A stretch of DNA of 64,000 nucleotides, taken from positions 154 to 64,153 of the forward strand of contig CAZPFY010000001.1 of NCBI GenBank assembly GCA_964586045.1, in the 5' to 3' direction. The notes below the pieces were generated by a model, which saw only the letters and a list, made by a program, of their open reading frames with translations, did not search any database and was not told the origin of the DNA. This DNA is from an uncultured Pseudomonadales bacterium (GTDB taxonomy: Bacteria > Patescibacteriota > Microgenomatia > UBA1400 > MFAQ01). Positions 28,001 through 43,366 of this stretch are shown here, piece by piece; positions within the stretch are counted from its first letter, which is position 1, and the number at the start of each line of letters is the position of its first letter. A program made the translations under genes and the position numbers.

Positions 28001-31000
28001 GCTAGGATTGTTGCTTATTCCGCCCGTGCCACCGTTGTAGCCGGCAGAGTTTGTGTTGACAGTAGTTCCGGTGGGAACAGTTACGGTGCCGCTAGCGCGG
28101 AAGAACATAACACCACCTTTGGGAGCGGTCCAGACTGAGGCGGTAAAGTCAGTTCCGGCATTGGAGAGAGTAACGTCGGTGTAATTGGGAACACGTTGGA
28201 GCATGACACGTTGATTGGTGGTGGCGGTACCAAGATTGGTGTCGTTGCCTGGATCATCGCCGTAGGTTTTATTTTTGGCTGTTGTAAAAGTAATGGTTGA
28301 GGTAGAGACAGAAGCAATTCTTAAAGTTTCGTAGTTGCCAACATTTAAATATTTTGTAGAAGTACCCTGAAGATTGATAAGAAGGACTTCATCGCCGGCG
28401 GATAAACAGCCGGTGGATGGGGTAGTGGAAAGGGTAGCAGTCGTGGGAGTGAGAGCGGTTACTGAATAATTGACAGCGTCTCCACCATCGGCGCAAGAGC
28501 GACCAGTAATCGAATTGGCGGTATTGATGTTGGTGTCAGTAGTGATAGCGATGGCACCATCAGAACCGGTACCATAAACATAAGTGCTACTGAGGGCAAT
28601 ATTGGTAGTTTTGAGTTTGTTGGTTGATGACGAAGTGGTATTTACCATAGCCAGATCCTGGTTGGTGGTTGTAGTCCAGTCAGAGATTTTTTTCCAAAGT
28701 GAAGTCACTGTATCGTAGAACCAACCGGTAAGAGAAAGGTCATTTGTGTTTTGATTGTGAGCAATTTCAACGTAACCACCACTTAAAGTTGCCGATTGAG
28801 TGGAGTAAGCGGTCATATCCATGGCAAGGCGGTGCCAGACAGAGTCTTGGCCATACATGAAGAGACTGCCGGTGTTGCCAATGGTGTGAACGTTGTTTAG
28901 ATTTCCAGAAATGGTGGCGCTGTTGTAGTAAATAGATCCAGCAACGCCGGTGGGGATAGCGGTTAAACTTTGGAGGGTAATAGTGCCGGAGTCATTGATG
29001 CGGAATTCGTCGCCACCAGTTGAATTCGTATTAAATGAGAGATACGTAGTTCCAGCGTCACTGATTGTTGATGAGCCAATTAAAGCTGTACCGGTAGTAC
29101 CATTACCAATTGTCAAGGCTGGGTTGGCGGTACCATCTATGGTTAGGGTACTAGAAATTTTAGCGTCTCCATTGACATAAAATTCCATATTGGATGGCAT
29201 CGAATTGGTTGAATCTCCAACTCTTAGATTACTAGTTACATTCCATTGGGTCCCTGCGGTTCCTGTAAGTTGGCGATTGGCAATACTAATTTGTTCGACA
29301 CCCAAGTGGTTGTTGATACCTTGGCTTAGAAATAGATTTTTCCAAGCTGTGCCACTAATGCCCAAAGTTGTTTCATCGTTTGCTCCTGGAACCAGATCGC
29401 CACTGTTTAGGATTTTAAGAAAAGTTAATAAGCCAGCATCACCACCCTGAGAAGTGGCAAAAGATAAATCAGCTCCGTTGAGAACGTTAATGGTTGGACT
29501 TGCTCCTCGGAAAGTAAGAGATCCTGAAGTGGAAGCATCTCCGGCTACATCAAGTTTTGAGGTTGGGGTGGTTGTACCTATTCCAATGTTGCCGGTGCCA
29601 TTGGGGTTGAGGAGAATGTTACCGGTGGTATTGTAGGTGCTGGAATTTCCGAGAGTTAAAGTTTGGCGGCGGGTTGTTCCCAAAGTTCCATTGCCGGTGA
29701 GGTAGGTTGTTCCGGCGATACTGGCAACTGGGGTGCCAAGATTGTTGTTTAGAAAAGAAAAGTTGGCACTGAGTGTTGACTGGCCACCGACGAGTAAATC
29801 AAGGGTAGAGTTTTTGGGGTAGATGGCCCCGTTGCTTGAAAGCCAATTTTCGGCAATGTTTTGGTTAGTTATTTCAGTGTCGAGATCTTTGAGGACGCCT
29901 TGAACAGTGAGAGAGTTGCTGTTTGAAAATTCATCGAAAACACCGATTAAGTAAGCACCACTGTCGTTGTTGGCAGTAGATTCGGCAAGGGTGGTGGTGC
30001 CACCAAAGATTAAATTGGCGGCGGAATTGATTTGAAGGCTGCTGGTATTGGATATGTATACGTTGCCTCCTGCGGACTGAAGGCTGAGGTTGCCAGCCAC
30101 ATCGCTAATGGAGTGGGCAACGCCATTGATCATGTTAATGGCGCCAAGATTACTAATATTAAATTTGGTGATACCAGAGGCTGAAGCACTGAAGAGTGAT
30201 CCTGTGCCGTTTTGATTTACAGTGAGTGCTGAAGTAACAGCAGAACCGGTTGCGGTATTGATGCTAGTACGGCCATCTGCTAAAACCCAAAACTTTGCAG
30301 ATTCAGTTGCCCCGGAAGAAAGTAGAATGAGTTTGCCGCTACCGGTGGCGATATCATTACCAATATATCCTGACAATAGAGAACCAGTTGTCAAATTTGC
30401 ATTTGTAGTTCTAAAAGTGTCTTCGGTAGTAGTGCCGCCAATTGCTAAAATTTGGCCGGACCCAATAGCGTCTGGTTGAATAACAATGTCTCCACCAGAA
30501 TTGGTGGCTGTTGTTAAAGAAATACTTTGGCCCTTGAGATTAAAATTTCCTGATGTTGAAACGATGGATGGTGAACTGGCGGCGATATTAAGATTGCCGG
30601 AGTTGTCAATTACGGGGACAGTGTTGATAGTTGCAGATGCTGACGCAGGATACCCCTGGAGGGTTTCGGAATTGAGGGCGTAGCCGACGGTGGCAATCTG
30701 TTGTCTGGGGGTAAGGGTTTCGGCGCCGACAGTAACTGCTAGGTAAACATCGCGATTATCACTAAAGACAGATTGGGGAATTTCACTGCCACAAACGCTG
30801 TCGCCTATGAGACTGTTAAAAACACCGTCGGAGTCCGGGGTAACAGAACAAGTACCGGTGGTATATAGTTGGCTGCCGGCGGTAAGATGATTCCAAAGTT
30901 TGAAATTGACATTGACGGCAGTGTTAATTGGAGTTCCAGATGAATCGGAGAGTCTGCCCTGGAAAGAAAGTTGTCTGCGGGGGGCGGTTAGAGAGGTGGC

Positions 31001-31891
31001 GGCTGAGCTGGGTTTGGCTTGTTTGATGATTTGGTTGTAGCCCAAAATGCCCATGGTGGTGGTAGCGATTACAAGCAAGGCGAGATGGAAGTAGGGAGTA
31101 AAAGGAAGGGCATTGTACTTGTGGTAAAAAACTGCCAAACGGCTTTTGGAGGGATTCTGAGGGTTTTTGGGTTTGGGAATAAGGCGATTGAGCCAGGCTA
31201 AGGGAGTAATTTTGGCTTCGGTTACGGTAATTTCAAAAGGATCCTTGGGAATTAGACTGCGGTTAAAACAAAAGTGAGTAAGCTTTTTAATAGATGATTG
31301 TCGTCTGCTGATAACAGAAGAGCTGGCGCGGGTTAGTTTTAGATAAGCAATGTAACTAGCTAATTGTTCGGTACTTAAAACTTGTTCGAGGTGGCTAGCG
31401 TTAAAAGGAGTTTGATTGGCAATCCAAGAAAAATAGTGATAAAGATCTGAAAGATAGTTTTTGACGGTAGAATGAGTTTTCTTTTCGTTTATTAATTGTT
31501 GTTTGAATTGTTCAAGAATTTTTTTGCTTGAAAGGTCCTTATTGTTGTTTGCATTGTTTGATGTATTTGGAGTTGGTTCGGATAAAGTTTCTATTTTGGT
31601 GATTTGATACTTGATGTTTAAGAAATTGGATAGTCTTCTGATGGAAGCAAGTCTGCGATTGGTGGTTGCGGGTGGTGTGAGAGTAGAGGATTGTTCCTGA
31701 CTGTATTTGCTGATGTATATTGATAGGTTTTGAAATACTTCGGTAAGATTAAACTGCTTTTGAGATTCCAAAAAGCGAAGAAAGTGCCTAACATCACTAA
31801 GGTAGTTTTTTATGGAAACAGCTGAAAGCCCAGACTCAATAAGAAATGAAGTGAAGAGCTTTAGGATTTCGGTATTGTTGGGCAGGTTCAT
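22046..31891 (-). CDS. giant (3281 aa) surface protein: two tandem integrase core-binding-like N-terminal domains, TM anchor, Gly-rich beta-helix-like regions, internal ~750-aa tandem duplication, C-terminal fibre-like region
   Basis: Uninterrupted 9.8-kb ORF. The two core-binding-like motifs are SIKNYLSDVRHFLRFL and TVKNYLSDLYHYFSWI. The TM is FHLALLVIATTTMGILGY. There are long GGGGG/GGAGG tracts and duplicated modules (ETLRIASVSTSTITFTT... / ETLRISSLAGNVITFTT..., and YFEDEDITN... / YFEDEDEATV...). Confidence 0.85.
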   Translation of the reverse strand: MNLPNNTEILKLFTSFLIESGLSAVSIKNYLSDVRHFLRFLESQKQFNLTEVFQNLSIYISKYSQEQSSTLTPPATTNRRLASIRRLSNFLNIKYQITKIETLSEPTPNTSNNANNNKDLSSKKILEQFKQQLINEKKTHSTVKNYLSDLYHYFSWIANQTPFNASHLEQVLSTEQLASYIAYLKLTRASSSVISRRQSSIKKLTHFCFNRSLIPKDPFEITVTEAKITPLAWLNRLIPKPKNPQNPSKSRLAVFYHKYNALPFTPYFHLALLVIATTTMGILGYNQIIKQAKPSSAATSLTAPRRQLSFQGRLSDSSGTPINTAVNVNFKLWNHLTAGSQLYTTGTCSVTPDSDGVFNSLIGDSVCGSEIPQSVFSDNRDVYLAVTVGAETLTPRQQIATVGYALNSETLQGYPASASATINTVPVIDNSGNLNIAASSPSIVSTSGNFNLKGQSISLTTATNSGGDIVIQPDAIGSGQILAIGGTTTEDTFRTTNANLTTGSLLSGYIGNDIATGSGKLILLSSGATESAKFWVLADGRTSINTATGSAVTSALTVNQNGTGSLFSASASGITKFNISNLGAINMINGVAHSISDVAGNLSLQSAGGNVYISNTSSLQINSAANLIFGGTTTLAESTANNDSGAYLIGVFDEFSNSNSLTVQGVLKDLDTEITNQNIAENWLSSNGAIYPKNSTLDLLVGGQSTLSANFSFLNNNLGTPVASIAGTTYLTGNGTLGTTRRQTLTLGNSSTYNTTGNILLNPNGTGNIGIGTTTPTSKLDVAGDASTSGSLTFRGASPTINVLNGADLSFATSQGGDAGLLTFLKILNSGDLVPGANDETTLGISGTAWKNLFLSQGINNHLGVEQISIANRQLTGTAGTQWNVTSNLRVGDSTNSMPSNMEFYVNGDAKISSTLTIDGTANPALTIGNGTTGTALIGSSTISDAGTTYLSFNTNSTGGDEFRINDSGTITLQSLTAIPTGVAGSIYYNSATISGNLNNVHTIGNTGSLFMYGQDSVWHRLAMDMTAYSTQSATLSGGYVEIAHNQNTNDLSLTGWFYDTVTSLWKKISDWTTTTNQDLAMVNTTSSSTNKLKTTNIALSSTYVYGTGSDGAIAITTDTNINTANSITGRSCADGGDAVNYSVTALTPTTATLSTTPSTGCLSAGDEVLLINLQGTSTKYLNVGNYETLRIASVSTSTITFTTAKNKTYGDDPGNDTNLGTATTNQRVMLQRVPNYTDVTLSNAGTDFTASVWTAPKGGVMFFRASGTVTVPTGTTVNTNSAGYNGGTGGISNNPSDGGESYCNANGGGGGADYDNNPVGSVGICGGGGGGGVNAATLYNANIAGSSIGGAGGGGGSAGAATGASGYGYGGGGAGGGYGTIGNGGKSGNTPTSDGVNGSGVTSGNGGTSAWTTTTGPAYAGGGGGGGTYGDTYLDKAYFGSGGSGGGAGDTGTTTYVASNGGAGGKGGGILMISAATLSVTSTGGIQSNGGAGSAAATATYPGSGGGGAGGSVKIVADTVTTSTTDLITAAGGAGDTTAVDGGTGGVGRIAVSYKNTLTANSSEPDFPTSPYLHQSGYYGIYVSKEINTTGAVNLNSFAYTETLNTYGQVEAQTRTGNTPDSTDGSWEAWKPVVTTTNIKNLNAMDATADWTATNLNAVADGTLARNVNYFEDEDITNAANKSIKLGSVGAENGYAEDTITSTDLTNFDLISAWVYATASGQIKLGIGESAATEQEEIIQIDATGTWQKVYWDISDVASASKNAITKLRITLLSPNQTVYVDSLQSEELIVASGTAPTSTPKNYFQYRFILTSSNGQATPSISNISLTYSDGASHTIDASSIRLANSTDYYSSSHLTVSETALSALSNSGITSNATGVTQAGDYDPGNGADGAGTVTSGTKVLSTDSIVGRTCADAINYSVNTLTSTTATLSTIPSTPSCLKTGDEILLINLQGTQGSIVNVGNYETLRISSLAGNVITFTTSKGKYYGDGAGDDTNLGIGVNNQKVMLQRVPNYTSVTVDSSATLSPSAYDYTTGLGGVLFFRAISAVSVAGSINATGKGYPGGTGAISTTTRSIPGHSLFYTSGVDGDGGTPLTPNNLGQNGVYSGGGGGGRHLTDGIGTGGVGTSTTGAGGGGGAGSASSNGSSYNGYGGGGGGGGYAAGGSGGTGPTIASNGDTNQSGSGTSGGSVGSGFGGGGGGGGAGNYGESSLGKLYLGSGGGGGGAGQATTGTYYSGLAGGGGGGIVIINSDTISVSGSILSKGDDSLTGTAASTQGGGGAGAGGSIKILGNTLSLGSSLVSSNGGAQIAGLSNFEGGSGGDGRVAIYYASTLTGTTSPAAAVAQTPSYNYSMYISEEMPTPNSTGYNKIKWLADLDTYGMIELQTRSGKSANSIDGTWEAWKPVVANTNKLDVIDMNTDTLWGMVDLTRADGGVARNVDYFEDEDEATVGNMTKFSSVGSPNGYSETTVTAKDLTNYDYLTAWVYATSSGNLVKFGFGESTGTEQEKTFYIQAANTWQKIYWDLTDINTTNRNAVTKLRISLPSTNTTLYVDNITADRYLTNADGSTVSSTPNEYFQYRAILTTTNPAYHPTLRSVQLDWSNGFKIVQTDMNTVRLYNKTGETIQIRLDAVVYGADLAEWYTVEDPSIEAGDLVAITGKTDPFGVPILRKTSSPNDQYLVGAISTKAGQELGITAENRRLLGLAGRIPVKIDPSSQDIKAGDSLTSSPLPGFATKAMPNDKVIGTAFEDWIPNIGKGVVLIHINNGIAPNPTTFSSRVYRLISNTNELFDETAGRFVNTVGSFAKVITGSISTNQLVSPTIETSFLTPMASTASITISPNLLSDNTQPLLIVEGQIKASTVFAKQGNFDELNTNSIVTNTITADKIYANQIEGLDAKIASLSSSFNNEEITILTNQISLKLNQNHATSSSSIASEIINNLKLGSNIVMNLLIDNLTVQQKLITPIADIDQLKVNIATVSGTLYANNIKSETIDKLKAQLDVLNEKYSTASSIFASIQEKYSQYDSLFSALDSETNPTNDPLQLSSLATESASLPTDMAFKNLNIEVLTTNDILANGSIFSQSISSFGTDLFIQPSGDKPVHLLANLMTLYPNGQIVVDGDLIVTGNIFANNLDTRTATVSGTLAVGKGELATDSAKILALFNQDGNVVGSVDASGSANFDKLTTYGLVIASGNNLDSTISGQTSSNSTIGTASIATGSSEIFINSSKINDDTLVYITPISDTNNQVLFVKSKQSHVGFTIAIPQPIEDEISFNFWLVQTK
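24000..28550. repeat. approximately 2.3-kb tandem duplication (two copies) within the second giant gene, including Gly-codon (GGN) rich tracts
   Basis: Two homologous ~750-aa protein modules with matching order of motifs. The plus strand shows CCACCACC runs at about 25.0-25.7 kb and 27.3-28.0 kb. The boundaries are approximate. Confidence 0.55.
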
Positions 31892-32471
31892 GAACAGACT
31901 ACGCTTTTAAGAGGCTATTAAAATTAAAAATAAAATAGGAATGACAAAAATTGTTCCTGCGGTAATTAATTCGAGATAGAGAGCCTTGTTGGAAGTACTA
32001 CTGCTTAAAAAGTCTTGTTGGGAGTAGTCGTTTATTAACATGATTTTTTGATTGTTGATAACTTGTCTTTAGGTTCAGATTAGACGATATTAGACGGTTA
32101 TATATTAACTATAAAATAGATTATTTCTGATGTCAATGGCTAGACCAAATATTGTTCTTTAGTTGATTGTTAAGTTTGTGCGTAAATTATTTTTAAAAGG
32201 AGAGGTAAGAGGAATTTGTTTATTTTATCGACGCATTAGATTGCGTTAATAAATATTTTCATGCGTTTAATGAAGCTAAAATAGACTAAATATACGCGGA
32301 AATACTGTTTATGCTTATGACTGCTGTGAAAATATTCAATGATATCTTTTGATTCGTATAGATATCAATTGATAGACAATGATTTCCTTAGGCATTACAG
32401 CTTACAAAATACACTCTGATTTTTTTGGATATTGACTGGTCCTTGTTGGTTCGGGAAGATTAATCTTTTGC

Positions 32472-34145
32472 TTAGGATTTGCTACCTAGTTTAGGGTAAA
32501 TGTATTCGGAAAAGGTGTATTGAAGCGAGAGGTAGAAGTAGACAAGGAGATAGCTGTTTGGAAAGAAGTATAGGCCAATAGAGGAACTGACTATCGCAGT
32601 AATGAGAGGAATTAGTTTGATGGAGTAGAAGTAACCTTGAAGCTCTTCTTTTGCCCCTAAAAACCTTTTGGGAGATGGTGATAGACAGACATCATTTAAG
32701 ATATTGCTGGGTAGAATTTGATTTTTCCAGGTATATCCTGTTTTCTTTAAAGTGATAAAAGATTTGTTTGGTAGACGGGAAGGAAAGAAAATATTTCCCT
32801 TAATGTCACTTACAGTGCGATATACTTTTTTATTTAATTTGTCTGGGTTATACAGTTCGATAAAAGTAAATGGTGTTGTTGAGACGCTTTTTCTTTTTAA
32901 GAAAGGAAACCCGAGCGTAAAGATAAAGCTAAGAAAATTACTCAAGTTTGCGTTAACTGCGATGCTTGTAATAACGAGATGTATAGGTAGGCCGAGACAG
33001 AGGAAGAAGAGAAGGATGTAAATACCACCATTGAGACCTTTCTTTTGAGAAATTATTTTTTGTGGTGGTAGGGAAGGGGCTGGTGGGGTTTTGGCTAGAT
33101 AAGGAGTGGGGGTTATGAGAGTAGAGAGCTCTGAGGGTGGTTTAAGGGTTTCGGTTACGGGCAATAACTCTCCTGAGTCCGTAGCAGTGTTTTCAAGATA
33201 TGGATTGTAGCCCTCTGGGAGTGTTTCTGGTTCTACGAGAATATAATCACTCTGTGATTCTTGGGCGGGTGCTTCGGGAATATATGTTGGAGTAATGGTC
33301 AGTAAACTTGTTGGTTCTAGAGATGGTCCTGGTTCACCTGGTGTTGAGGTGTACAGCAGGTAAAATGGGGGGAATATTGTGGAGTTGCTTGTGGCATCAG
33401 TTGCCGAGAGTTGAATGGTGTATGTAACCCCTGGAATTAGGTTCATAAACTGCTTTTCCCAGTTTCCGTCTGTGGAGTTTGTAATCCATGATTGAGTAAC
33501 GCATTCCGAAGGAGCATTTGTGGGACAAATAAGACTTACCTGAAGATTGGAGTTAGCTTCTACTTTGCCACCAATTAAAGCATTTTCGGTATCAACAAAG
33601 AGATATCTGTTTGGTTCATCTGGTATTGTGGTGGGATTGGTAGTGTCCCAGTTGTATTCAGTTTGGTTGACCTTAGTAAGAGAGATAAAGGGGGAAATGG
33701 TGTCGATATAAAAGTTCCAATTCCCTGTGGTTGCGTTTTGTCCGACGTTGTCGTATACAGCAACTTTCCAGGTATGATAACCCTCCGATGGACTTTGCTT
33801 TAGGGTTACGTAGAAGTAATTTCCTGATGAACTAGCGGTATAAAAATAATAGTCTTGAAAAACAATAGAGTCGGATATTGAGGCCGCAAAAACTACGTTG
33901 TCTATATATAAATCATAGTGGTGTAAATTTAGAGGGTTGGGGGTTGGTCTGAGCCAGATGAATTTAATTAGGCCACTGTTTGTAGCGAAGTTGTTTGGTG
34001 GGGCTACAAGGCTGGGGGGGTAGAAATTGGTGGAGGCGACGCTGGCAGAGACCTTAGAATTGCTACTTGTAGGGTTGGCGGCGTTGGCAAAGTTAACCTT
34101 TAGAAAAATTATGACTAATAGGGCGGCGATAATTTTTCGACCCAT
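32472..34145 (-). CDS. secreted/membrane-anchored surface protein (signal peptide, Ig/fn3-like N-region, Pro/Thr-rich linker, C-terminal TM segments)
   Basis: 557 aa. Signal MGRKIIAALLVIIFLKVNFANA, a beta-rich region, a PTP-rich linker, and hydrophobic helices at about aa 370-400 and 510-545. Confidence 0.55.
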   Translation of the reverse strand: MGRKIIAALLVIIFLKVNFANAANPTSSNSKVSASVASTNFYPPSLVAPPNNFATNSGLIKFIWLRPTPNPLNLHHYDLYIDNVVFAASISDSIVFQDYYFYTASSSGNYFYVTLKQSPSEGYHTWKVAVYDNVGQNATTGNWNFYIDTISPFISLTKVNQTEYNWDTTNPTTIPDEPNRYLFVDTENALIGGKVEANSNLQVSLICPTNAPSECVTQSWITNSTDGNWEKQFMNLIPGVTYTIQLSATDATSNSTIFPPFYLLYTSTPGEPGPSLEPTSLLTITPTYIPEAPAQESQSDYILVEPETLPEGYNPYLENTATDSGELLPVTETLKPPSELSTLITPTPYLAKTPPAPSLPPQKIISQKKGLNGGIYILLFFLCLGLPIHLVITSIAVNANLSNFLSFIFTLGFPFLKRKSVSTTPFTFIELYNPDKLNKKVYRTVSDIKGNIFFPSRLPNKSFITLKKTGYTWKNQILPSNILNDVCLSPSPKRFLGAKEELQGYFYSIKLIPLITAIVSSSIGLYFFPNSYLLVYFYLSLQYTFSEYIYPKLGSKS

Positions 34146-34150
34146 GAGTG

Positions 34151-35110
34151 TTATTTCCTTTCCAAGATATGGATTTCCTTTTGAAGTTCTCGAACTTCTT
34201 TTTCGAGTTCGTCTTGGTGCCTTTTGCTGCGTTTGTTAAGCAAGATGATGACTGTTAGAGCTGAGATTAGGGCTACAAGTGAGTAAATGACTAGACGGAT
34301 TGGAAAAAGCCAAAAGAAAATTGTTGCGCTCAAGACACTGTCTTGACTGCCGTAGATAAGATTGAGTTCTGCTTTGTATTTTCCATAACCCCATTTTTGA
34401 TTCCAGGCGGCGGAAATGAGCTTGGTATTGTCCGGGAAAATGTTTCCGAGGTCCAAAGGAATTCTGGATACTTCTTTGTTAAATAAATCGGTAATGGTTA
34501 TTGATCCTTTTGGTTGAATATGAATATCAGAAGTATTTTCGATGGTTCCTGTAAACTCGATTGGTCCTTTTTCGGTGAATTTTGGAGAAGTAAAAGAGGT
34601 GATTGTTGCTTTTTCGTTTATTTTTCCTTTTATGGTGAGATAAATTAGACTACCAACTCGTTGACCGATGATGGTAGCTGTTTTTTTTAGTTCCCCTGGT
34701 TTTATTTCGGCGTTGGGCATGTAAGTTACCATGGCATAATGACCACCTGGCAATGCAGAGTGTGGTACTCGAATAATGATTTCGATGTTTTGAGTGGCTT
34801 TTGAGTCGACAGGAATGAGCTTGGGAGCACTGATCCATTTGCGAAGCGACCATTTACTGGTGATGTTTTCGGAAATTGGAATTGGGGTGCCACTAAGATC
34901 ATCTACGATAAAATCATTTACAAAAACAGTATAGTTTTGTGAGATTTCGGAGTCGTTTCTGACTTTTAGGGTAGCTCTTATAGTTTCGCCCGGCTTGGCT
35001 TCGATTTGAAGTCGGGGTGGAATGGCGGTGATGGTTGATTCGGCAAAAGTTGGAGTGGAAAATAAAAATAAAAAGAGAGAAAAAATTAAGATGAGATTTA
35101 TTTTTTTCAT
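34151..35110 (-). CDS. DUF916/DUF3324-like cell-surface protein (signal peptide, beta-sandwich, C-terminal TM and charged tail)
   Basis: 319 aa. Signal peptide, then PPRLQIEAKPGETIRATLKVRNDSEISQNYTVFV, as in the DUF916 N-region. C-terminal TM FFWLFPIRLVIYSLVALISALTVIILL followed by a KRSKRHQDELEKE tail. Paralogous to 36567..37559. Confidence 0.5.
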   Translation of the reverse strand: MKKINLILIFSLFLFLFSTPTFAESTITAIPPRLQIEAKPGETIRATLKVRNDSEISQNYTVFVNDFIVDDLSGTPIPISENITSKWSLRKWISAPKLIPVDSKATQNIEIIIRVPHSALPGGHYAMVTYMPNAEIKPGELKKTATIIGQRVGSLIYLTIKGKINEKATITSFTSPKFTEKGPIEFTGTIENTSDIHIQPKGSITITDLFNKEVSRIPLDLGNIFPDNTKLISAAWNQKWGYGKYKAELNLIYGSQDSVLSATIFFWLFPIRLVIYSLVALISALTVIILLNKRSKRHQDELEKEVRELQKEIHILERK

Positions 35111-36538
35111 TTAGAAAGAGGCTGTGGCAGTATAAGTAATTTGGTTTTCGTAGTCTCCAGCGGCTTGAGTAGCGTCGACGGTAACACGGTAACAAACGTT
35201 GGCGGTGTTGCTATTGGCTACTGTGGTGTTTGACATAATGGTGGCAACTAGAGGAGCATCTGGATCTGCGACGGAGGGGAATTTGCGTGCGTTGAAAGCT
35301 GCACCAGAAGAGGTAAAGGGAACCGTAGCTCCAGAAACGGATTTGAGGGTGTAGCCAAAGCCAGGATGGGCAGTAGCGGTGTCCCAAGTGTCGGAAACTG
35401 TTTCGCTGGCTGTTCCAGCGTCTCCTGTAGTGTCGGGAATAAATGGAGTGGTACCGCCATTTTTACCAAGTTGATCGTTTTCTTGGGCGGTTACAATGTA
35501 GCCGTTAGAGGCGTTGGTGGAAACAGTGAGGAGGTGGGCTGCATCCTTGAAGGTATTTAAAGCTAAGGTGCCAAAAGGGACGGCCAGGGGAGCATTTGTG
35601 CCAGTTGTAGTGTCGACGTCTGTTTGGTTTGTAACGCCTGTGCCACACGGGTTGGCACCTGAAGCTACTCCTGCAATAGTAAAGGTGATAGTTGGATCGA
35701 CTGTAGCGGTGACTCTGACTGATTCGATAACAGCGACTTTGCCACTACTGCTGTCAATTTCGGTATCAACATCGTCGTAGTTTTTTACTTGAAAAGTATA
35801 AGTATCAGCTGTTGCTTGAGTGTGTCCAGTGGCAGGAGCTGGGGCTATTGGGGTGTTGGCTCCACTGCCAATAGTGATAGTGATAGGGGTGGAGACGCCA
35901 CCAGCGCCAGAATAATGGACTTCAAAACAGTGGTAGTTGGCTGGGGAAGTACAACCTGTCCCACCTGATGTGGTTGCAACGCCAGCAACAAAGGTGTATC
36001 CGGTTGTATCGGTGCCTGATACGGTAACCGTTCCGCCACCAAAATCAAAACCGTCGTCGTCTGGGCTTCCGTCGTTTGGGGTCGTAGCGTCAGCGGGTAA
36101 AAGAACGCGAAAATAACCATTGGCGACCGCCGAGGCGGTGTTGAAAGTTACGACATGTTGAGGTTTTGATTTTAAATATACCGGGTCGTTATCGTCTGTA
36201 TCTCCGGCGGCTAAAACTGGAGAAACGGAAAATTCACTGGAGTTTAATATACCGACAACAGTGTAGGAGCCTGTGCCGATGGTAAGGCTGTCGCCGATTC
36301 GAAGATTGGCGGTTGAAATGGTATTTGCCGGGGCAGAAGCAACGGTTTTGATCATAACGTTCGAGCTTCCGGTAAAAGTACCTGAAGAATCGACGCGGGC
36401 ATTAATGGAAATTCTGGAGGATTGAAGGGTATCTTTGACGACGGTAAGGTTGGATGAGTCTGTTTCGATAGGGTTTGATACAAAAAAGATTATTGAAAGA
36501 CCAAGGAAAAATGGCAAAAACTTCTTTTTTGTGGACAC
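35111..36538 (-). CDS. secreted beta-rich surface protein (WxL-like candidate), paralog of 37561..38430
   Basis: 475 aa. Signal peptide, Thr/Gly/Ala-rich beta-strand composition, and a C-terminal tail TQAAGDYENQITYTATASF that aligns with SQTAGTYQNGIQYLAIPAF of the paralog. The W..D..GFGY motif is shared. Confidence 0.5.
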   Translation of the reverse strand: MSTKKKFLPFFLGLSIIFFVSNPIETDSSNLTVVKDTLQSSRISINARVDSSGTFTGSSNVMIKTVASAPANTISTANLRIGDSLTIGTGSYTVVGILNSSEFSVSPVLAAGDTDDNDPVYLKSKPQHVVTFNTASAVANGYFRVLLPADATTPNDGSPDDDGFDFGGGTVTVSGTDTTGYTFVAGVATTSGGTGCTSPANYHCFEVHYSGAGGVSTPITITIGSGANTPIAPAPATGHTQATADTYTFQVKNYDDVDTEIDSSSGKVAVIESVRVTATVDPTITFTIAGVASGANPCGTGVTNQTDVDTTTGTNAPLAVPFGTLALNTFKDAAHLLTVSTNASNGYIVTAQENDQLGKNGGTTPFIPDTTGDAGTASETVSDTWDTATAHPGFGYTLKSVSGATVPFTSSGAAFNARKFPSVADPDAPLVATIMSNTTVANSNTANVCYRVTVDATQAAGDYENQITYTATASF

Positions 36539-36566
36539 TATATATTTAGATTACTACACTATCGCT

Positions 36567-37559
36567 TTAATTATCAACTACCTGATTTTTGTTTGTAACT
36601 TTAGATATAATTTTCAGTAGGACGAAAGATATAAAAATGGTGGCACCAGATTTGAATGGGAAGAAAAAGATATCAATAGAATTGCTGGTATTTGTGTTTT
36701 CTGATTTGACGTTAAAGCTAAGTGTATGCAAGCCAACTATTCTTAGCGTTGGAGAAAAGAAAAAGGGTTTTTCGTTGGAAGAGATAAGTGTTCGAGAAGA
36801 CTTGGAAATGACATATTGAGGAAGTATACCTTGAAGAAAAAGAACCTCGGAGTTTTTTTTGTTAGTTAATTTAAAGGTACCTTTGGTTTCGGTTAGGGAT
36901 GGTCCCTCGTTGGTAGCGATTGCGGTTACAGTAATGGGGGTAAGGTTGTCAGCATAATAGCGACGACCAATTTTGACAAAACTACCCGAAGTGATGGTTA
37001 TTTTTTCAATTTTTAAAATGGTGTTGGGATTTATTTCTGGAGTTATAGAAATAAGAAGATTGGCGCCAATTGAGGAACCAATACTAATATTTTTTTGATC
37101 TCCGCTTATTGAGTTATCGTAGGTTGAGAATAGTAAGGTGGTGTAAAGATCTTCGGCATTAGCGGTTTCGGGTACAGAAAGGCTGACCACTATTTGTTGC
37201 TTATTTTTGGCTTTTAGTAAAAATGGTTCGTCAAACTTTATTTCTGAGTTGGAGAGGTTGAAGTATTTTAACCAGGAAGCACTTGCTTTGATGTCAATGG
37301 TGGGATTGCCATTGTTGTCAGCTTTGTTGAAGGGGATGACTCTAACAACAAGATATTTGTCAGTGTTTTCGATGTTTTCAATAGTAAAACTTTTGGTAAT
37401 TGATTTACCAGGTTTTATTTGAACTCGAACAAGGGGTGGATCGAGAGAGAGGCCGACTGGCGAGGCTTGTGTGGGAGTAGCAACTGCGAATAAACAAAAT
37501 ATTATTACGATGCCTGACTTGACTAGTAATTTAGCAAATAAAATATTTTTCGTCTTCAT
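36567..37559 (-). CDS. DUF916/DUF3324-like cell-surface protein (second copy)
   Basis: 330 aa. Signal peptide, then PPLVRVQIKPGKSITKSFTIENIENTDKYLVVRVIPF, similar to the 34151..35110 N-region. C-terminal TM ATIFISFVLLKIISKV. Confidence 0.5.
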   Translation of the reverse strand: MKTKNILFAKLLVKSGIVIIFCLFAVATPTQASPVGLSLDPPLVRVQIKPGKSITKSFTIENIENTDKYLVVRVIPFNKADNNGNPTIDIKASASWLKYFNLSNSEIKFDEPFLLKAKNKQQIVVSLSVPETANAEDLYTTLLFSTYDNSISGDQKNISIGSSIGANLLISITPEINPNTILKIEKITITSGSFVKIGRRYYADNLTPITVTAIATNEGPSLTETKGTFKLTNKKNSEVLFLQGILPQYVISKSSRTLISSNEKPFFFSPTLRIVGLHTLSFNVKSENTNTSNSIDIFFFPFKSGATIFISFVLLKIISKVTNKNQVVDN

Positions 37560-37560
37560 A

Positions 37561-38430
37561 TTAAAAGGCTGGGATGGCTAAATACTGAATTCCGTTTTGG
37601 TAAGTTCCTGCTGTTTGCGATCCGGAAATGTTTAGTTTGTAAGTGACAATAGCACTGGAGTCTGTGGCTGTGGCTGAAGCTCTGGTCATTACTGTACTGG
37701 GTTGGTCAGTTCCTTGAATGGGGAAGGGGCGGAAATAAGTTGTGTTGACAAAATCTGTATCTGCGTTGGTGCCGGTTGCATTATAGCCAAAGCCGTAACG
37801 AGTATCGTCTGTCCAGGGCGTAGCGTCGGTGATAGTGCAAGGGGTGGCAAGATTGCAGCTGGTGTCGGGAATTGTAGTTGAGCCGTTGGTTAGTCTTAGG
37901 GGGTGATCTTGAATTACTTTGACGTTGAAACCGTATGAGCTGCCGGTGGATACAGTAAGAACATTTGTAAGGGTGCTTGGGGTCCCGGGGACTAAAGTGC
38001 CGTAGCTCAGGTCAATGTCAGAGATGGTAAAGGTGAAGGGAATGGAGTTGGCGAGATATTGAAAGCCGGCTTTTATGGTATAGCCACTTGAGTTAAATTC
38101 GCCTTGAGCTGTTTGCCCCACAGTGTCATTTAGTTTGTACGACGTGGAACTTTTTGATCCTCCCGTAATATTAATAGTTCCCATTTTTATTTCAAAACCT
38201 GGGGAAGAGAGGTTGTCAGCGAAAGTTGATGATGGAAAAAAAACGATAAAAACAAACACTGCAATAGTAATTACTACAAGACTATTTTTATTAAAAAAAG
38301 TCTTAAATAAGGCTAAATGGTGGCTATTTGGAGTGCCATCAGCCGTGGAGTGTGTCTTTCTGATGTATTTTGATAAGCTAATCATTTTTACTTTGATATA
38401 TTTCGTGTTTGTGCCTGGTGGGGTATACAT
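37561..38430 (-). CDS. secreted beta-rich surface protein (WxL-like candidate), paralog of 35111..36538
   Basis: 289-aa ORF. The real start may be the internal Met (MISLSKY, about 38385). Signal anchor LVVITIAVFVFIVFFPSSTFA. LTVSTGSSYGFNVKV aligns with LTVSTNASNGYIVTA of the paralog. The C-terminus is YLAIPAF. Confidence 0.5.
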   Translation of the reverse strand: MYTPPGTNTKYIKVKMISLSKYIRKTHSTADGTPNSHHLALFKTFFNKNSLVVITIAVFVFIVFFPSSTFADNLSSPGFEIKMGTINITGGSKSSTSYKLNDTVGQTAQGEFNSSGYTIKAGFQYLANSIPFTFTISDIDLSYGTLVPGTPSTLTNVLTVSTGSSYGFNVKVIQDHPLRLTNGSTTIPDTSCNLATPCTITDATPWTDDTRYGFGYNATGTNADTDFVNTTYFRPFPIQGTDQPSTVMTRASATATDSSAIVTYKLNISGSQTAGTYQNGIQYLAIPAF

Positions 38431-38458
38431 AACCCGAAGAGATTAACAATTATTTTAT

Positions 38459-39199
38459 TTATATGTTTTTATTATCAGATGATTCTTTTATAGTATCTTC
38501 TAGGTCCTCGCTAGAAGAATAAAGGGTTAAAAGGTCAATTTGGATCGATTTTATTTTGTCCAAAAAGCTTTTGGGAAACTGAATGTTGTTGCGGCTGGAG
38601 TTGAGAAAAATAATTAAATCGGTAACCGAATTGATAACGGTGTTGATTGTGGGCTTGGCTTCGGTGGCGAGCCAGAGTAAACTGTCGGTTTCTTCTTTCT
38701 TGATGTTATCTTTTAACAAAGAAATTTTTCCCTCGGCCTCAAGATTTTTAATCATAATTTTGGCAAAAGATTGGGCGAGGGGGGAAATTAAAAGCAGGGA
38801 AAATAAATTGGCGAGAGTGAGGATATCAAACTCAAAATTGGTTTTTACTAAATAGATGGTAGCGGTACAGATAGCAATAGTGAAACTTTGGTAGCTTTCG
38901 TATATGAGGGCAAAAGCAAAAATCAAAAAATAGTATAAGAAAAAAAGTGGAGAAGACGCACCGCCAGTTGAAAGTATCAAGAGTTGGGTAATAGCGTTTG
39001 TTGCAAGGATGGTAAGAATGTTTGGGTCAAAATTGTGATATGTTGCAAGCAAAACTTTTTTGGAGACGGTGTAGAGGATTATAAGAGCTCCGCAAAGCTG
39101 GAGAGTGTAGTTTGAGGTTAAGATATTCTCACTCCACAGAAAGGGTAGTAGGCAGGAAGCGGCAATAAGGCTAGTGTGGAGAAGAAAACCTTGTTTCAT
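38459..39199 (-). CDS. polytopic membrane protein with a C-terminal soluble domain (first gene of the surface-locus operon)
   Basis: 246 aa. About five hydrophobic helices in the first 150 aa, then a charged C-terminal region. Confidence 0.45.
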   Translation of the reverse strand: MKQGFLLHTSLIAASCLLPFLWSENILTSNYTLQLCGALIILYTVSKKVLLATYHNFDPNILTILATNAITQLLILSTGGASSPLFFLYYFLIFAFALIYESYQSFTIAICTATIYLVKTNFEFDILTLANLFSLLLISPLAQSFAKIMIKNLEAEGKISLLKDNIKKEETDSLLWLATEAKPTINTVINSVTDLIIFLNSSRNNIQFPKSFLDKIKSIQIDLLTLYSSSEDLEDTIKESSDNKNI

Positions 39200-39458
39200 T
39201 AATTAAATATAGCAAATATATTAAATTAAAAATTTAAATTTATAGATTCTTTGGTGATATATTTTGTTATTAAATTGGCAATATATATATTTGAGTGATT
39301 ATTGTTTTGGGCATAAATAAGATATTGGATAACAGATGTCAGGTATCAGATGTCTGATGTGTTTCTTAGAGATGGATCAGCCTTTGGATGAAGAAGTCAG
39401 GTGATTGATAAGACCTCACTTCTAATATTGACATGGATTTTTGCTAAAATAAATTAAA

Positions 39459-40058
39459 GTGTTAGATAAATTTAAAGATGTTTATCGAAAAACTGGAGAT
39501 TTGGAAAAATGGATGGGTGTTTTTGCGCTGTTGGGTGTGCTTGTTGCCTTTGTTGGCCTTTTTAGAGGTATTCTAGTGTCTCGTCAGGTTCAAATTGAGT
39601 ACCTAAACACAGATAAGAAGACTACAGAGGAAATTAAAATAGTGGTAGACATAGAGGGGGCAGTAAATAAACCGGGGGTGTACGAACTTTTAAATAATTC
39701 TAGGATAAAAGATATTTTGGTCTTGGCTGGAGGATATAGTGAAAAAGCAGATAGAACATACTGCGAAAAAATGATTAATTTGGCTTCAACCTTAAAAGAC
39801 GCTCAAAAAATTTACATCCCTTTTGTTAATGATACCCCGAAGGTGCTAGGGTATACTGAGGCTAATTCAGCTACAAAACTGATCAATATGAACACCGCTT
39901 CTGATAGTGAACTTGATACCCTTTGGGGTATAGGTGAGTCCAGAATAGAGAATATTGTGAAAAATAGACCATACCAAAGTGTCGAAGAGCTCGTTACAAA
40001 AAAAGTTTTTACGAAACAAATTTTGGAAAAAAATAAGGAGATGATAGTGGTTTATTAA
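39459..40058 (+). CDS. comEA: competence protein ComEA (SLBB plus helix-hairpin-helix DNA-binding domains)
   Basis: GTG start. N-terminal TM, SLBB-like VVDIEGAVNKPGVYEL, and a C-terminal HhH MNTASDSELDTLWGIGESRIENIV. Confidence 0.85.
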   Translation: MLDKFKDVYRKTGDLEKWMGVFALLGVLVAFVGLFRGILVSRQVQIEYLNTDKKTTEEIKIVVDIEGAVNKPGVYELLNNSRIKDILVLAGGYSEKADRTYCEKMINLASTLKDAQKIYIPFVNDTPKVLGYTEANSATKLINMNTASDSELDTLWGIGESRIENIVKNRPYQSVEELVTKKVFTKQILEKNKEMIVVY

Positions 40059-40059
40059 C

Positions 40060-41178
40060 ATGCAAAAAAGGGTTTTTGCATTAGTCTTGTTACTTGTTTT
40101 GAGAATTATTATCGGTTTTGTTATTAATGCCAGATACTATCAATTTGAACAAATTAGAGTTACGGGAAAAGTGATCAGAGTGATTCAGATAGATAATAAC
40201 TGCATCATAGATTTGGGAGTATTTAGAGCAAAGATGGAGAACCGATGCGCCTTTAAAAAAGGCGAGTTTGTGAGGGTTGTTGGCAGACCTACAGCTGGTT
40301 TGATAGAGCTTCTTGGGGGTAAAATACTCTTGAACACGGCGATATTTGATTATTCTGAAAATAAGGATTTACTTGTTATGAGATTTGATTTTTGGCAGTC
40401 CACTTTTGGGCGACTGAGAGATTATTGCAGAGAAGTTTACCAAAGATTGTTGCCTAGGAACGAGTCGGCTTTGCTTGCGGGAATAGTTTTGGGGGATAAA
40501 GAAAGTATAGGCTATGATTTTTATCAGAATATGGTGAGAAGCGGAACAATCCATGTGGCTGTGGCCTCTGGATATAACTTGATGCTGGTGGGGGGAGTTA
40601 TTTTGAATTTGTTGTTTTGGATTTTTGAAAGGAAAAAAGCTACGATCTTTGCAGTTTTGGCCATGGCTTGTTATGCGGTTCTGGCGGGGTTTGAGCCACC
40701 TGTGGTGAGAGCTTTGATAATGTCGAGTTTGTTGCTTGTTGGCGCAGTGTTGGGGAGGAAGACAGCCCCTGTTTGGTTTTTAATAATTAGTGCTTGGGTA
40801 ATGCTGGTTTGGGACATGGATTTGCTTTGGAATGTTAGCTTTCAGCTTTCGGTTATGGCAAGTGTAGGGTTAATGGTGTTTGCGCCTTGGGTACAGGAAA
40901 TATTTAGGATAAAGGGGTTGGAGAAGGAAGGAATTGGTTTGGAAAAATTCGGCTTAATAACAACGGTGTGCACTATGTTGGCAACGGCACCAGTTATTTG
41001 GTGGCATTTTGGTAGAATAAGTATAATAGGCGTATTTAGCAATGTTTTTATATTGCCACTTGTCCCTCCAGTAATGATTCTTGGAGTTTTCACACTACTT
41101 ATGCCCGGACTGTTTTTTGTGCCTACTTATGCTCTGGTCCATCTTATGGTTTTGATAATTAACTTTTTTGGAACTTGA
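40060..41178 (+). CDS. comEC: ComEC/Rec2 membrane competence domain (N-terminal DUF4131-like plus Competence domain), a separate ORF from the MBL domain
   Basis: LLAGIVLGDKESIGYDFYQNMVRSGTIHVAVASGYNLMLVGG matches the ComEC competence-domain motif. It is polytopic. Confidence 0.8.
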   Translation: MQKRVFALVLLLVLRIIIGFVINARYYQFEQIRVTGKVIRVIQIDNNCIIDLGVFRAKMENRCAFKKGEFVRVVGRPTAGLIELLGGKILLNTAIFDYSENKDLLVMRFDFWQSTFGRLRDYCREVYQRLLPRNESALLAGIVLGDKESIGYDFYQNMVRSGTIHVAVASGYNLMLVGGVILNLLFWIFERKKATIFAVLAMACYAVLAGFEPPVVRALIMSSLLLVGAVLGRKTAPVWFLIISAWVMLVWDMDLLWNVSFQLSVMASVGLMVFAPWVQEIFRIKGLEKEGIGLEKFGLITTVCTMLATAPVIWWHFGRISIIGVFSNVFILPLVPPVMILGVFTLLMPGLFFVPTYALVHLMVLIINFFGT

Positions 41179-41242
41179 CATAGATATTTTAAACCTATAA
41201 AATACTAGACAATTGAACGTAAATTGAAATTGGGAGGTACAA

Positions 41243-41431
41243 ATGCTGAGAGATTTGGCGGAGTCGCTGTTTTTTTTGGGAATGGTGGTTGTTATTATTA
41301 AGTTCGGTTGGCAGCTGGTAGACTGGATTATGAGCATGCTGTACGTTCTATCTTTTGGATGCTGCCTGGGTATTGTGGCTTTGATTGGGGGAGCCATATA
41401 TTTCTTTGGAAATAGAGAAAACTTTTTTTAA
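41243..41431 (+). CDS. small hydrophobic ORF between the two comEC parts
   Basis: 62 aa, two hydrophobic helices. It may be a remnant of the ComEC membrane region in a different frame. Confidence 0.3.
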   Translation: MLRDLAESLFFLGMVVVIIKFGWQLVDWIMSMLYVLSFGCCLGIVALIGGAIYFFGNRENFF

Positions 41432-41473
41432 TCTCACCTGATTTAGGTGGGATTTTTTGTGGCAAAATAAACT

Positions 41474-42253
41474 GTGGATTGGAAAAAGTGGGGGGTGGTA
41501 ATTGTTCTTCTTTTATCTATTTGGATATATTTTGAGTGGCCAGATAATAAACTGCATGCGGTTTTTTGTGATGTAGGGCAGGGAGACGCAGCCTTAATTG
41601 TTTTGGGTAGATTTCAAGCTTTGGTAGATACTGGGGCGTATGAAGATAAAGTTTTGCAGTGCCTAGCTGATCACGTTCCTTTTTGGGACAGACAAATTGA
41701 GCTGGTTTTTTTGAGCCATGCGGATAAAGATCACGTCGGAGCTCTGGAGGGGATAAAAAAGCATTACAAGATTGGTAATGTAATTAGTAAGGCAAAGGAA
41801 AATGATTTAATAAGATATGGAACGTTATATTTTGAGATATTAAAAGGGAGTCAAAATAATGTGTTGGTACCCATGAGCGGATCGAGTGAATCGAATGAAT
41901 CGTCGATTGTGATGAGAATGGCTTTTGGTAAGCTGTCGGTGCTTTTTACGGGAGATATTGATATGGAGAATGAATTGGCACTGATTGCTAGTGGAGTGCT
42001 AAGGCAAACAGAGGTGTTAAAAGTGTCGCATCACGGCTCTAAGTTTGCAAGTGGCTCTGAGTTTTTGGAAAAGGTTATGCCTAAGTACGCAATTGTCTCG
42101 GTAGGAAAGAAAAATAGTTATGGCCACCCAAGTAGTGATACTTTGATGCGTTTAGACACTGTTAAAACAAAAGTTTTGCGAACGGATTTAATAGGGGAAA
42201 TTGAGTTTGTGAGCGATGGGAGTCGGTTGGTCGGTGTGTCGGCAGATCGGTAA
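41474..42253 (+). CDS. comEC: ComEC C-terminal metallo-beta-lactamase domain protein
   Basis: HAVFCDVGQGDAALIV, FLSHADKDHVGAL and VSHHGSKFASGSEFLEKV form the ComEC-type MBL fold. Confidence 0.8.
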   Translation: MDWKKWGVVIVLLLSIWIYFEWPDNKLHAVFCDVGQGDAALIVLGRFQALVDTGAYEDKVLQCLADHVPFWDRQIELVFLSHADKDHVGALEGIKKHYKIGNVISKAKENDLIRYGTLYFEILKGSQNNVLVPMSGSSESNESSIVMRMAFGKLSVLFTGDIDMENELALIASGVLRQTEVLKVSHHGSKFASGSEFLEKVMPKYAIVSVGKKNSYGHPSSDTLMRLDTVKTKVLRTDLIGEIEFVSDGSRLVGVSADR

Positions 42254-42308
42254 TCGGTGGCACAGCGACACGGAGTCACAAAAAGACACCCTTGCGGGTG
42301 TCGGATTT

Positions 42309-42902
42309 TTATTTCATGCGTTTTGAAAGGAGTAAGGCTTGGGCTTGGACGAGTTCTGTGGAGATGTAACTCATTTGCGCAAGCAGTTTTACAGAATATC
42401 CTCGATCACGAGGTTCTATATCTTTGTCGGTGAGGAACTTGGCCCAGTGTTCTGATAGGATTACGTTTTCGAGAAGAGAGCGAAACTTGGGATCGTTACC
42501 AATGTAGCCGGTGTTAGCCATAATTTCAATCATGGCTCGCAGAGTGACGATGGGGTCGCAGGCGAGTAGCCAATCAAATATCTTGTCAAAATGATTTTCC
42601 CAAATGTCTTGAATTGAGGTGATTTCGGAAGGCCCGAAACGACCAGTAGCCATGATCCATTTGAGAGGGCTCCCGGGAGCATATTCTTCTATGCCTATCC
42701 AAAGATGGCCGGGTAAAATAGATGGATAGGGGCGAATGACAATATTGTCGATTGTAGTTGGTTCATTGATCATACTTGGGTGGACAAGGCAGAGATTTGG
42801 TTTCGAACCGTGCTTTTTGGCGTAGTAATCGACCGCATTCTGGATCTTCTGTCCAAGAGTGGTCTTTGGGTCATTGTCGAACCATAACATTCCAGTGTGC
42901 AT
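42309..42902 (-). CDS. hypothetical protein
   Basis: 197-aa ORF with no recognizable motif. Confidence 0.45.
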   Translation of the reverse strand: MHTGMLWFDNDPKTTLGQKIQNAVDYYAKKHGSKPNLCLVHPSMINEPTTIDNIVIRPYPSILPGHLWIGIEEYAPGSPLKWIMATGRFGPSEITSIQDIWENHFDKIFDWLLACDPIVTLRAMIEIMANTGYIGNDPKFRSLLENVILSEHWAKFLTDKDIEPRDRGYSVKLLAQMSYISTELVQAQALLLSKRMK

Positions 42903-43014
42903 AAGAGCTCCTTTTGTGAAAGAATTTTGGCTATTTTAGCATGGTTTGGGGAAATATGATACAATATAGGATGACTTAAGCAGTCGTATCTTTGAATAAA
43001 TTAGGAGGTGTAAC

Positions 43015-43359: not shown

Positions 43360-43366
43360 GTTGGTT

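Follow-up and report, generated by a model that had tools for sequence, protein, structure and literature searches.

What do six closely packed genes of an ultrasmall groundwater bacterium of the candidate phyla radiation (CPR) encode, and what would their products build on the cell surface? The genes lie on the minus strand of a stretch of 64,000 nucleotides from a Microgenomatia genome (contig CAZPFY010000001.1; the whole 64-kb stretch is called the window here). A first-pass annotation had read them as a surface locus resembling the WxL complexes of Firmicutes, perhaps a divergent or new family. Our analysis points to a different answer: the locus is probably the Pam pilus operon of CPR bacteria in a form that is streamlined and divergent in Microgenomatia, and from its products we infer a thin surface filament. 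It would be a divergent member of a known system. CPR bacteria account for a large share of bacterial diversity and are host-attached, and very few of their surface machines are understood. The locus would represent a compact form of Pam, strongly conserved across Microgenomatia, all genes of which current NCBI models would leave "hypothetical". What is added here is a homology between its chaperones and the WxLIP proteins of Firmicutes, a donor-strand motif logic and an extended conserved cassette.

The Pam operon of Candidatus Mycosynbacter amalyticus (Saccharimonadia) holds the pilins PamA, PamB and PamE together with PamT, PamC/PamD and PamR. Cryo-electron microscopy (cryo-EM) of the filaments of this organism identified PamA and PamB, and the subunits polymerise by donating a linker strand (bioRxiv 10.64898/2026.03.03.709456). 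In the same work the donated strand is the interdomain linker, and linker and C-terminal strand are the most conserved parts of PamA and PamB. PamT consists of the C-terminal domain only and is the proposed tip, PamC and PamD are PapD/FimC-like chaperones that keep a C-terminal transmembrane (TM) helix, and PamR is a TM-anchored terminator with tandem Ig/FnIII domains and an extra N-terminal strand. The system has no usher and no transenvelope machinery, and the pili of M. amalyticus are linked to host contact. Pam homologues of Microgenomatia, found by language-model searches, were already reported in this 2026 preprint (bioRxiv 10.64898/2026.03.03.709456), and the claim that such an arrangement was undescribed in this kind of organism does not hold.

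All six open reading frames (ORFs) were found exactly at the coordinates given in the first-pass annotation. Cassette proteins are named here by their length in amino acids (aa): 246-aa, 289-aa, 330-aa, 475-aa, 319-aa and 557-aa in transcription order, followed by 44-aa and 3281-aa. The six genes are spaced by 0-28 bp, and a scan placed no terminator-like site among them on their strand. A survey of related genomes, which had been proposed, found the cassette widely: the order 246, 289, 330, 475, 319 and 557 aa, followed by a giant protein of about 3000 aa, is kept in about 30 independent Microgenomatia genomes from Collierbacteria, Woesebacteria and Beckwithbacteria, at protein identities of 25-84%, and in a complete Beckwithbacteria genome at 25-45%. 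The arrangement is therefore not a product of chance. Loci were searched with the closer alignment of the chaperone-like proteins, the diverse alignment being too divergent as a query. Word-index searches returned about 390-450 homologues each for the 475-aa, 319-aa and 289-aa proteins at E ≤ 0.001, all unannotated; those with a named source are from Collierbacteria, Woesebacteria or other Microgenomates, save a few evidently mislabelled records. The profile of the chaperone-like family matched 8286 cluster representatives at the same threshold.

The two secreted proteins carry the link to Pam. The 289-aa (37561..38430, minus strand) and the 475-aa protein (35111..36538, minus strand) each have an N-terminal signal peptide by hydropathy and are paralogous as had been proposed, with 32% identity over the C-terminal 157 residues (E 5e-10) and, between the family profiles, a probability of 99.6% (E 3e-24). 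Pfam gave no match for either. NCBIfam release 20 includes models for a "CPR-type pilus", among them NF058579 (PamT) and NF058581 (Pam_pilin_C), which go back to the Pam preprint. The 289-aa protein matches NF058579 at E 8.8e-13 (48 bits), and so do all 46 members of its family (best E 4.5e-15). NF058581, a model of 148 positions, aligns end to end in both proteins (E 3e-4 for the 475-aa and 9e-3 for the 289-aa protein), and is matched by 57 of the 58 members of the 475-aa family (best E 3e-9) as well as by 46 of 46 in the 289-aa family (best E 6e-8). At the level of sequence profiles, then, both secreted proteins are homologous to the C-terminal domain of Pam pilins. The matches further support homology of the 289-aa protein to PamT, and do not support the status of an orthologue.

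The layout of both proteins is in agreement with these assignments. In the 475-aa protein, the putative PamA-like major pilin, the signal peptide is followed by an N-terminal domain of about 240 aa with a beta-sandwich fold, then by a linker and by the Pam pilin C-terminal domain; four cysteines (C196, C204, C298 and C449) are conserved. Its AlphaFold model (pLDDT 90.7) shows the N-terminal domain as strands at residues 32-271, an unpaired linker at 272-283 and a C-terminal beta domain that extends to residue 475. The 289-aa protein, the candidate tip subunit, lacks the large N-terminal domain: between its signal peptide and the Pam pilin C-terminal domain is a conserved segment of about 55 aa. 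Cys192 and Cys198 are conserved. The true start of its ORF probably lies downstream of 38430, its first ATG, since most orthologues are about 250 aa long and the stretch ahead of the signal peptide is unconserved. Searches of PDB sequences with single proteins and with pilin and small-pilin family profiles returned nothing relevant, in PDB copies that did not include PamA/PamB (25PZ/25QA). In one Collierbacteria genome two tandem genes encode pilins of the 475-aa type, with 46% and 48% identity to the protein in the window (L022:3815-6796), and the number of shaft pilins therefore varies within the group.

A further element is the linker between the two domains of the 475-aa protein. Among the 12-mers of this family the C-terminal strand GDYENQITYTAT ranks first in conservation and the interdomain linker IESVRVTATVDP second, the latter with an entropy of 0.27 bits where the domain mean is about 1.05. 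Its core RVTATVDP is almost invariant, even at 41% overall identity. In the window protein this candidate donor strand (IESVRVTATVDPT, residues 271-283; 35690..35728, minus strand) is where the pLDDT of the monomer model falls to 74. Among the seven large cassette proteins, 3281-aa included, the motif V[ST]A[ST]V is limited to a single copy in the 475-aa protein, in the linker, and a single copy in the 557-aa protein; the 289-aa protein is accordingly without it. In the 557-aa protein the motif is KVSASVA (residues 31-37; 34035..34055, minus strand), which directly follows the predicted cleavage site of the signal peptide and is kept as V(S/T)A(T/S/E)(V/I) in 16 of 16 aligned orthologues. Linker and anchor-strand motif are too invariant for covariation analysis. 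The distribution of the motif fits the prediction of a putative filament built by donor-strand exchange with a tip, a shaft and a terminator that serves as anchor. It also gives a testable assembly order, in which a tip without donor strand would be followed by a shaft carrying RVTATVDP and by a membrane terminator carrying VSASV.

The second paralogous pair consists of the chaperone-like 330-aa (36567..37559, minus strand) and 319-aa (34151..35110, minus strand) proteins, which share 25% identity over 203 residues (E 4e-7) and are both matched by one family hidden Markov model (HMM), at E 1.3e-39 and E 2e-109, respectively. Hydropathy bears out the topology described for the locus: signal peptides, a polytopic 246-aa protein and, in each member of this pair, one C-terminal TM helix with a charged tail. 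Likewise, the motifs quoted for the two pairs are all present (LTVSTGSSYGFNVKV / LTVSTNASNGYIVTA, PWTDDTRYGFGY / TWDTATAHPGFGY, AGTYQNGIQYLAIPAF / AGDYENQITYTATASF and PPLVRVQIKPG / PPRLQIEAKPG). The 330-aa protein has two beta-sandwich domains and its TM helix at residues 297-315. In the 319-aa protein the beta-sandwiches span about residues 27-160 and 168-268; its AlphaFold model (pLDDT 86) reproduces both and the long C-terminal TM helix, with a loop of low confidence at about 131-150.

That these proteins resemble DUF916/DUF3324 proteins, as the first-pass annotation had it, is borne out for the DUF916 part. The 319-aa protein itself matches Pfam WxLIP_PGBD (DUF916) weakly (E 0.08), and the window proteins are below the Pfam gathering cut-off; the same model is matched by 54 of the 59 close family members and by 75 of the 119 distant ones, with a best E of 3.5e-10. 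Searched against PDB sequences, the chaperone family profile found WxLIP1 of Enterococcus faecium (EfmWxLIP1) at E 0.003. A comparison set was assembled from plasmids of Enterococcus, Lactococcus and Lactiplantibacillus, with eight proteins annotated as "DUF916 and DUF3324" and eleven small proteins of WxL clusters, nine of them annotated as WxL-domain proteins. With hhalign the CPR family aligned with the eight Firmicute WxLIPs over 291 columns at full length (Prob 99%, E 4.5e-18), and the similarity persisted when signal peptide and TM helix were removed (Prob 97.3%, E 2.2e-11) and when the DUF916 N-domain alone was used (Prob 97.4%, E 1.2e-11). The CPR profile found seven of the eight with HMMER, at E 4e-15 to 4e-7 scaled to a notional database of a million sequences. 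For the DUF3324 part, sequence comparison gave no such support: DUF3324 alone against the second chaperone domain was not significant (Prob 2%), and Pfam WxLIP_HBD is not among the families listed for the 119 members of the chaperone family. The best PDB match of the 319-aa model in Foldseek is the solved WxLIP of E. faecium (9i1y_A and 9i25_C, E 1e-12), with about 245 columns covering both domains in the case of 9i1y_A. The next matches are the chaperone-usher chaperones CfaA, YadV, CsuC, CupB2, Caf1M and DraB (E 1e-9 to 1e-7).

Both TM-anchored proteins are thus homologous to the WxLIP/DUF916 proteins of Firmicutes, with a likeness in fold to the chaperones of chaperone-usher systems. This homology appears to be new. 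The Pam preprint does not mention WxL or DUF916 (bioRxiv 10.64898/2026.03.03.709456), and the analogy to WxL loci drawn in the first-pass annotation therefore adds something real. The finding connects two literatures and offers 9i1y and 9i25 as a solved template for Pam chaperones. Work based on AlphaFold predicted that WxLIP, as a helper, completes the beta-sandwich of its client by a strand (PMC10599100), which is donor-strand complementation in all but name. The homology further points to strand complementation of the chaperone type as the way in which the WxL clusters for virulence and adhesion in enterococci, listeriae and lactobacilli operate. In the modelled 319-aa protein, residues of about 143-160 (KTATIIGQRVGSLIYLTI) make up a likely donor segment, which overlaps the loop of low confidence.

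Chaperone-usher pili, such as class 5 CFA/I (CfaA/CfaB/CfaE) and the archaic Csu pili, resemble the present system in the PapD-like fold of the helper, in the proposed logic of donor-strand complementation and exchange, in the proposed order of tip, shaft and terminator, and in a weak match of the pilin to CfaB/CfaE. The differences are considerable. The conserved cassette genes encode no outer-membrane usher, there is no outer membrane, and the chaperones are tethered to the membrane; the candidate donor strand lies in an internal linker and not in an extension at the N-terminus, and the pilin has an additional N-terminal domain. Sequence-level membership in PapD_N or fimbrial families is not seen either. 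The Pfam families listed for the 119 chaperone family members do not include PapD_N, and only a single member weakly matches an NCBIfam fimbrial chaperone model (E 0.009).

Assembly of a Pam pilus from these parts may be pictured as follows. All parts would be exported by Sec. The tethered 330-aa and 319-aa proteins would then cap the incomplete Ig-like C-terminal domain of new subunits by inserting a beta-strand, that is, by donor-strand complementation. Having no donor linker, the PamT-like 289-aa subunit would only accept a strand, and for this reason it is proposed to nucleate the distal tip. Copies of the 475-aa protein, which could both accept and donate, would be added by donor-strand exchange, each placing its linker RVTATVDP into the groove of the preceding subunit. 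The 557-aa protein (32472..34145, minus strand), the candidate PamR-like terminator and anchor, would only donate: insertion of its N-terminal VSASV into the last pilin would end growth and tie the filament to the membrane by a proline-rich stalk and TM segments. Neither an usher nor an ATPase would take part in assembly. The 557-aa protein comprises a signal peptide, the N-terminal V(S/T)A(S/T)V strand, Ig-like domains, the proline-rich stalk and a polytopic membrane region. Its Ig-like domains are indicated by weak matches to Pfam Big_13 and to an Ig-like domain of SiiE in the PDB, and its position in the cassette is conserved across related loci. By analogy with Ca. M. amalyticus, the filament likely serves long-range contact with a host cell or surface.

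Architecture and gene content also speak for a Pam pilus. As in the published system, the bearer is a CPR bacterium, all parts appear to be exported by Sec and an usher is missing; one pilin joins an N-terminal beta-sandwich by a linker to a truncated-Ig domain at the C-terminus, and a small pilin has the latter domain only; each of two helpers combines two Ig-like domains with a TM helix at its C-terminus; and a TM-anchored protein has an additional, donor-like strand at its N-terminus. In both systems conservation is highest in the linker and the C-terminal strand, and the pilins of both have paired cysteines. The locus departs from Pam in having one candidate shaft pilin instead of three (PamA, PamB and PamE), and in the additional conserved 246-aa, 44-aa and 3281-aa partners. 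Genes for ATP synthase, CorB and MFS proteins were not found among the window ORFs scanned, which were those of the left-hand two thirds; ComEA and ComEC adjoin the cassette instead.

Several observations weigh against a Pam pilus and must be noted. The similarity in sequence is remote, and all NCBIfam scores are far under the curated cut-offs (48 against 240 bits for PamT and about 21 against 55 for the pilin domain); the proteins are therefore distant relatives of Pam and not orthologues by the standard of NCBI. The link rests on HMMs, architecture and gene content. The full-length 475-aa model yields weak and generic beta-sandwich matches only, among which are the CFA/I pilins CfaB and CfaE, and TasA. 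The 557-aa protein is unlike the published PamR, having Ig-like domains, a proline-rich stalk and several TM segments where PamR has two FnIII domains and one C-terminal TM helix. Strand insertion, the order of subunits and the terminator role of the 557-aa protein are read from motifs. The 246-aa, 44-aa and 3281-aa partners have no informative matches, so that no role is assigned to them, and no filament has been seen to date in any Microgenomatia organism.

Since the helpers are demonstrably WxLIP/DUF916 homologues and the solved WxLIP is their best PDB match, a static WxL-type surface complex has to be weighed before all other alternatives. Here the two WxLIP-like proteins would hold the secreted proteins permanently by strand complementation, as proposed for Firmicute WxL clusters, with the N-terminal domain of the 475-aa protein as a binding module and without any filament; we consider this unlikely. 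The WxL/Csc clusters of Lactobacillales contain a WxLIP (DUF916, DUF3324 and a TM helix), short and long WxL proteins and an LPXTG protein (PMC1534035, PMC10599100; 9i1y, 9i25), and 9i25 is a stable complex of WxLIP with a long WxL protein. The helper is homologous in its DUF916 domain and similar in architecture, and is predicted in those clusters to complete the beta-sandwich of its client. The parallel in arrangement noticed at first pass is real as well, the order of small subunit, helper and large subunit with a C-terminal conserved domain mirroring that of short WxL, WxLIP and long WxL. Also the pilin tail AGxYxxxIxY resembles the WxL tail AxxYxTTLxW.

The clients themselves do not follow this parallel. 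The assignment of the secreted proteins to WxL found no backing in Pfam, HMM or hhalign searches, and it was the Pam models that were matched instead. Neither the window proteins nor any of the 58 members of the 475-aa family matched Pfam WxL, and a WxL HMM found neither secreted protein and nothing else in the window. Either C-terminal-domain family, or both merged, aligned with the eleven WxL proteins at a probability below 2% in hhalign, with scores of 18.9 and 16.1 that lie inside or slightly exceed what column-shuffled controls gave (maxima 21.4 and 14.8). Among the best 50 Foldseek matches of the 475-aa model, the long-WxL chain of 9i25 does not appear. With Pfam, HMMER and hhalign not significant in several settings and with reversed and column-shuffled controls, and with the recurrent aligned piece limited to the last two strands, the reading of the pilin C-terminal domain as a WxL domain found no support.

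Other differences from WxL/Csc clusters concern gene content and the linker. A check for sortase or LPXTG partners found none: no window ORF has LPxTG with a C-terminal hydrophobic tail or a TLxTC sortase motif. The locus has two helpers in place of one, its clients have Tyr in place of the signature Trp, and it belongs to a CPR bacterium instead of a Firmicute. A static complex, moreover, leaves unexplained why the linker is near-invariant, why it returns at the N-terminus of the 557-aa protein and why it is lacking in the small subunit, whereas a conserved, donor-like linker in the clients would imply polymerisation. The secreted proteins match models of Pam pilins, the founders of which form filaments in cryo-EM.

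Client domains of the two systems are alike when compared by eye: both have a G(Y/W)x(V/L) strand, a C-terminal AGxYxxx(I/L)x(Y/W) tail and a similar spacing of blocks. On a plasmid of Lactiplantibacillus plantarum, a "hypothetical protein" in the WxL position of a WxL cluster (L047:4219-4800) ends in AGTYSGTIDYNISTNLD, with the tail AGTYSGTIDYNIS; it has Tyr where WxL proteins carry Trp, and its tail is closely like those of CPR pilins. This likeness is a lead and not a result, homology being established for the chaperones and at most hinted for the client domains. One may speculate that Pam pili and WxL/Csc clusters branched from a single ancient donor-strand system of monoderm envelopes that had no usher and was built on a membrane-tethered DUF916-type chaperone, an idea that we regard as possible rather than probable. 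If it is true, the C-terminal domain of Pam pilins has its counterpart in the WxL domain, and either WxL proteins are chaperone-delivered and perhaps polymerising subunits, or Pam pilins evolved from static WxL-like complexes.

A Pam-type pilus might also serve DNA uptake together with the divergent ComEA/ComEC genes rather than host attachment. Head-to-head with the cassette, at 39459..42253 on the plus strand, are genes for ComEA and ComEC (Competence domain) and a separate ORF for the metallo-beta-lactamase part of ComEC. About 20 of the related loci fetched show this arrangement, with ComEC/ComEA identities as low as 28-45%. More distant loci, e.g. Beckwithbacteria L040 and L034-L035, lack the adjacency, which may therefore reflect inherited synteny. 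Neither a retraction ATPase nor a DNA-binding feature is present, and the Pam pili of M. amalyticus are tied to host contact. Taken together, a function in DNA uptake seems very improbable. ComEC is split into two ORFs here and in Collierbacteria.

The weakest alternative, that these are unrelated surface proteins with Ig-like folds (S-layer, matrix scaffold or adhesins) and the helpers RbmA-like matrix proteins, can draw on RbmA and other tandem Ig/FnIII proteins as strong fold matches of the 319-aa model (E 2e-10) and on the generic beta-sandwiches matched by the pilin, but deserves hardly any credence in view of specific sequence-profile links to Pam pilin and WxLIP families beyond fold, a conserved layout of paired subunits and helpers and a specific distribution of the donor-strand motif. 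TasA and TasA-like (TLP) fibres of Bacillus and archaea differ from the cassette in subunit fold, operon content and the lack of a dedicated two-domain chaperone, and the matches to TasA are no better than those to generic beta-sandwiches.

The conserved unit exceeds the six genes discussed so far, as the 44-aa micro-ORF and the 3281-aa protein also belong to it. Linkage of these two and of the 246-aa protein to the cassette suggests a functional tie, as far as conserved gene order can indicate one; that the 3281-aa protein is part of the pilus is not claimed. The polytopic 246-aa membrane protein (38459..39199, minus strand) has four to five TM segments and a helical C-terminal domain of about 100 aa, and is kept as the first gene in 22 loci; no match was found in Pfam, PHROG or the PDB. 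Its cytoplasmic tail contains, at residues of about 165-200, a conserved EETxSLLWISTxAKPSL segment that by eye is like the H-box of a histidine-kinase dimerisation domain (HisKA) without the histidine, a likeness that no profile match supports.

Following the cassette, a 580-bp gap 5' of the micro-ORF and the giant gene contains a promoter-like site (32108..32136, minus strand; 11 of 12 matches in a consensus scan only). The micro-ORF (31907..32041, minus strand) encodes a 44-aa tail-anchored membrane peptide of the pattern MLINDYSQQ...TAGxIFxxPxxFLLxxS directly upstream of the giant gene, and by tblastn 19 distinct related loci have it in this place, with 34-73% identity. It is usually missed by gene callers. 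The 3281-aa surface protein (22046..31891, minus strand), which follows the cassette in about 25 loci, has two N-terminal integrase-SAM-like domains (Pfam Phage_int_SAM_1, E 1e-10), apparently in the cytoplasm, and a single TM helix; its huge ectodomain is rich in Gly and Thr and includes an internal duplication of about 750-800 aa. PHROG and the PDB gave no match. Across Pfam, PHROG, NCBIfam and PDB profiles, the 246-aa, 557-aa and 3281-aa proteins yielded nothing other than this integrase-SAM domain and the weak Ig-like matches. The fusion of a DNA-binding-type domain to a giant surface protein is an oddity. A "tail fibre-like" neighbour is mentioned in the Pam paper (bioRxiv 10.64898/2026.03.03.709456), and its identity with the 3281-aa protein could not be confirmed. 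The window has a second giant ORF (9271..19608, minus strand; 3445 aa), without a match in Pfam or PHROG; that the two giants are paralogues was rejected on comparison.

Rfam found two tRNAs and nothing else in the window. Many public third-party annotation (TPA) metagenome-assembled genomes that carry the cassette are titled "uncultured Pseudomonadales bacterium" (L006, L011, L017, L019, L020, L024, L026-L032, L036 and L038), and one further record with the cassette is titled "Spirochaetia bacterium" (L018). On cassette-bearing Microgenomatia contigs these titles look wrong. Measured on the plus strand in 2-kb windows across 1..64000, GC skew reaches strongly positive values of +0.16 to +0.41 in 30 of 32; the exceptions, at 24001-28000 (about 0.01-0.04), fall where the giant gene encodes its Gly-rich part. 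The skew is independent of gene orientation, its cumulative curve climbs monotonically, and its magnitude is far above the usual replication-strand bias.

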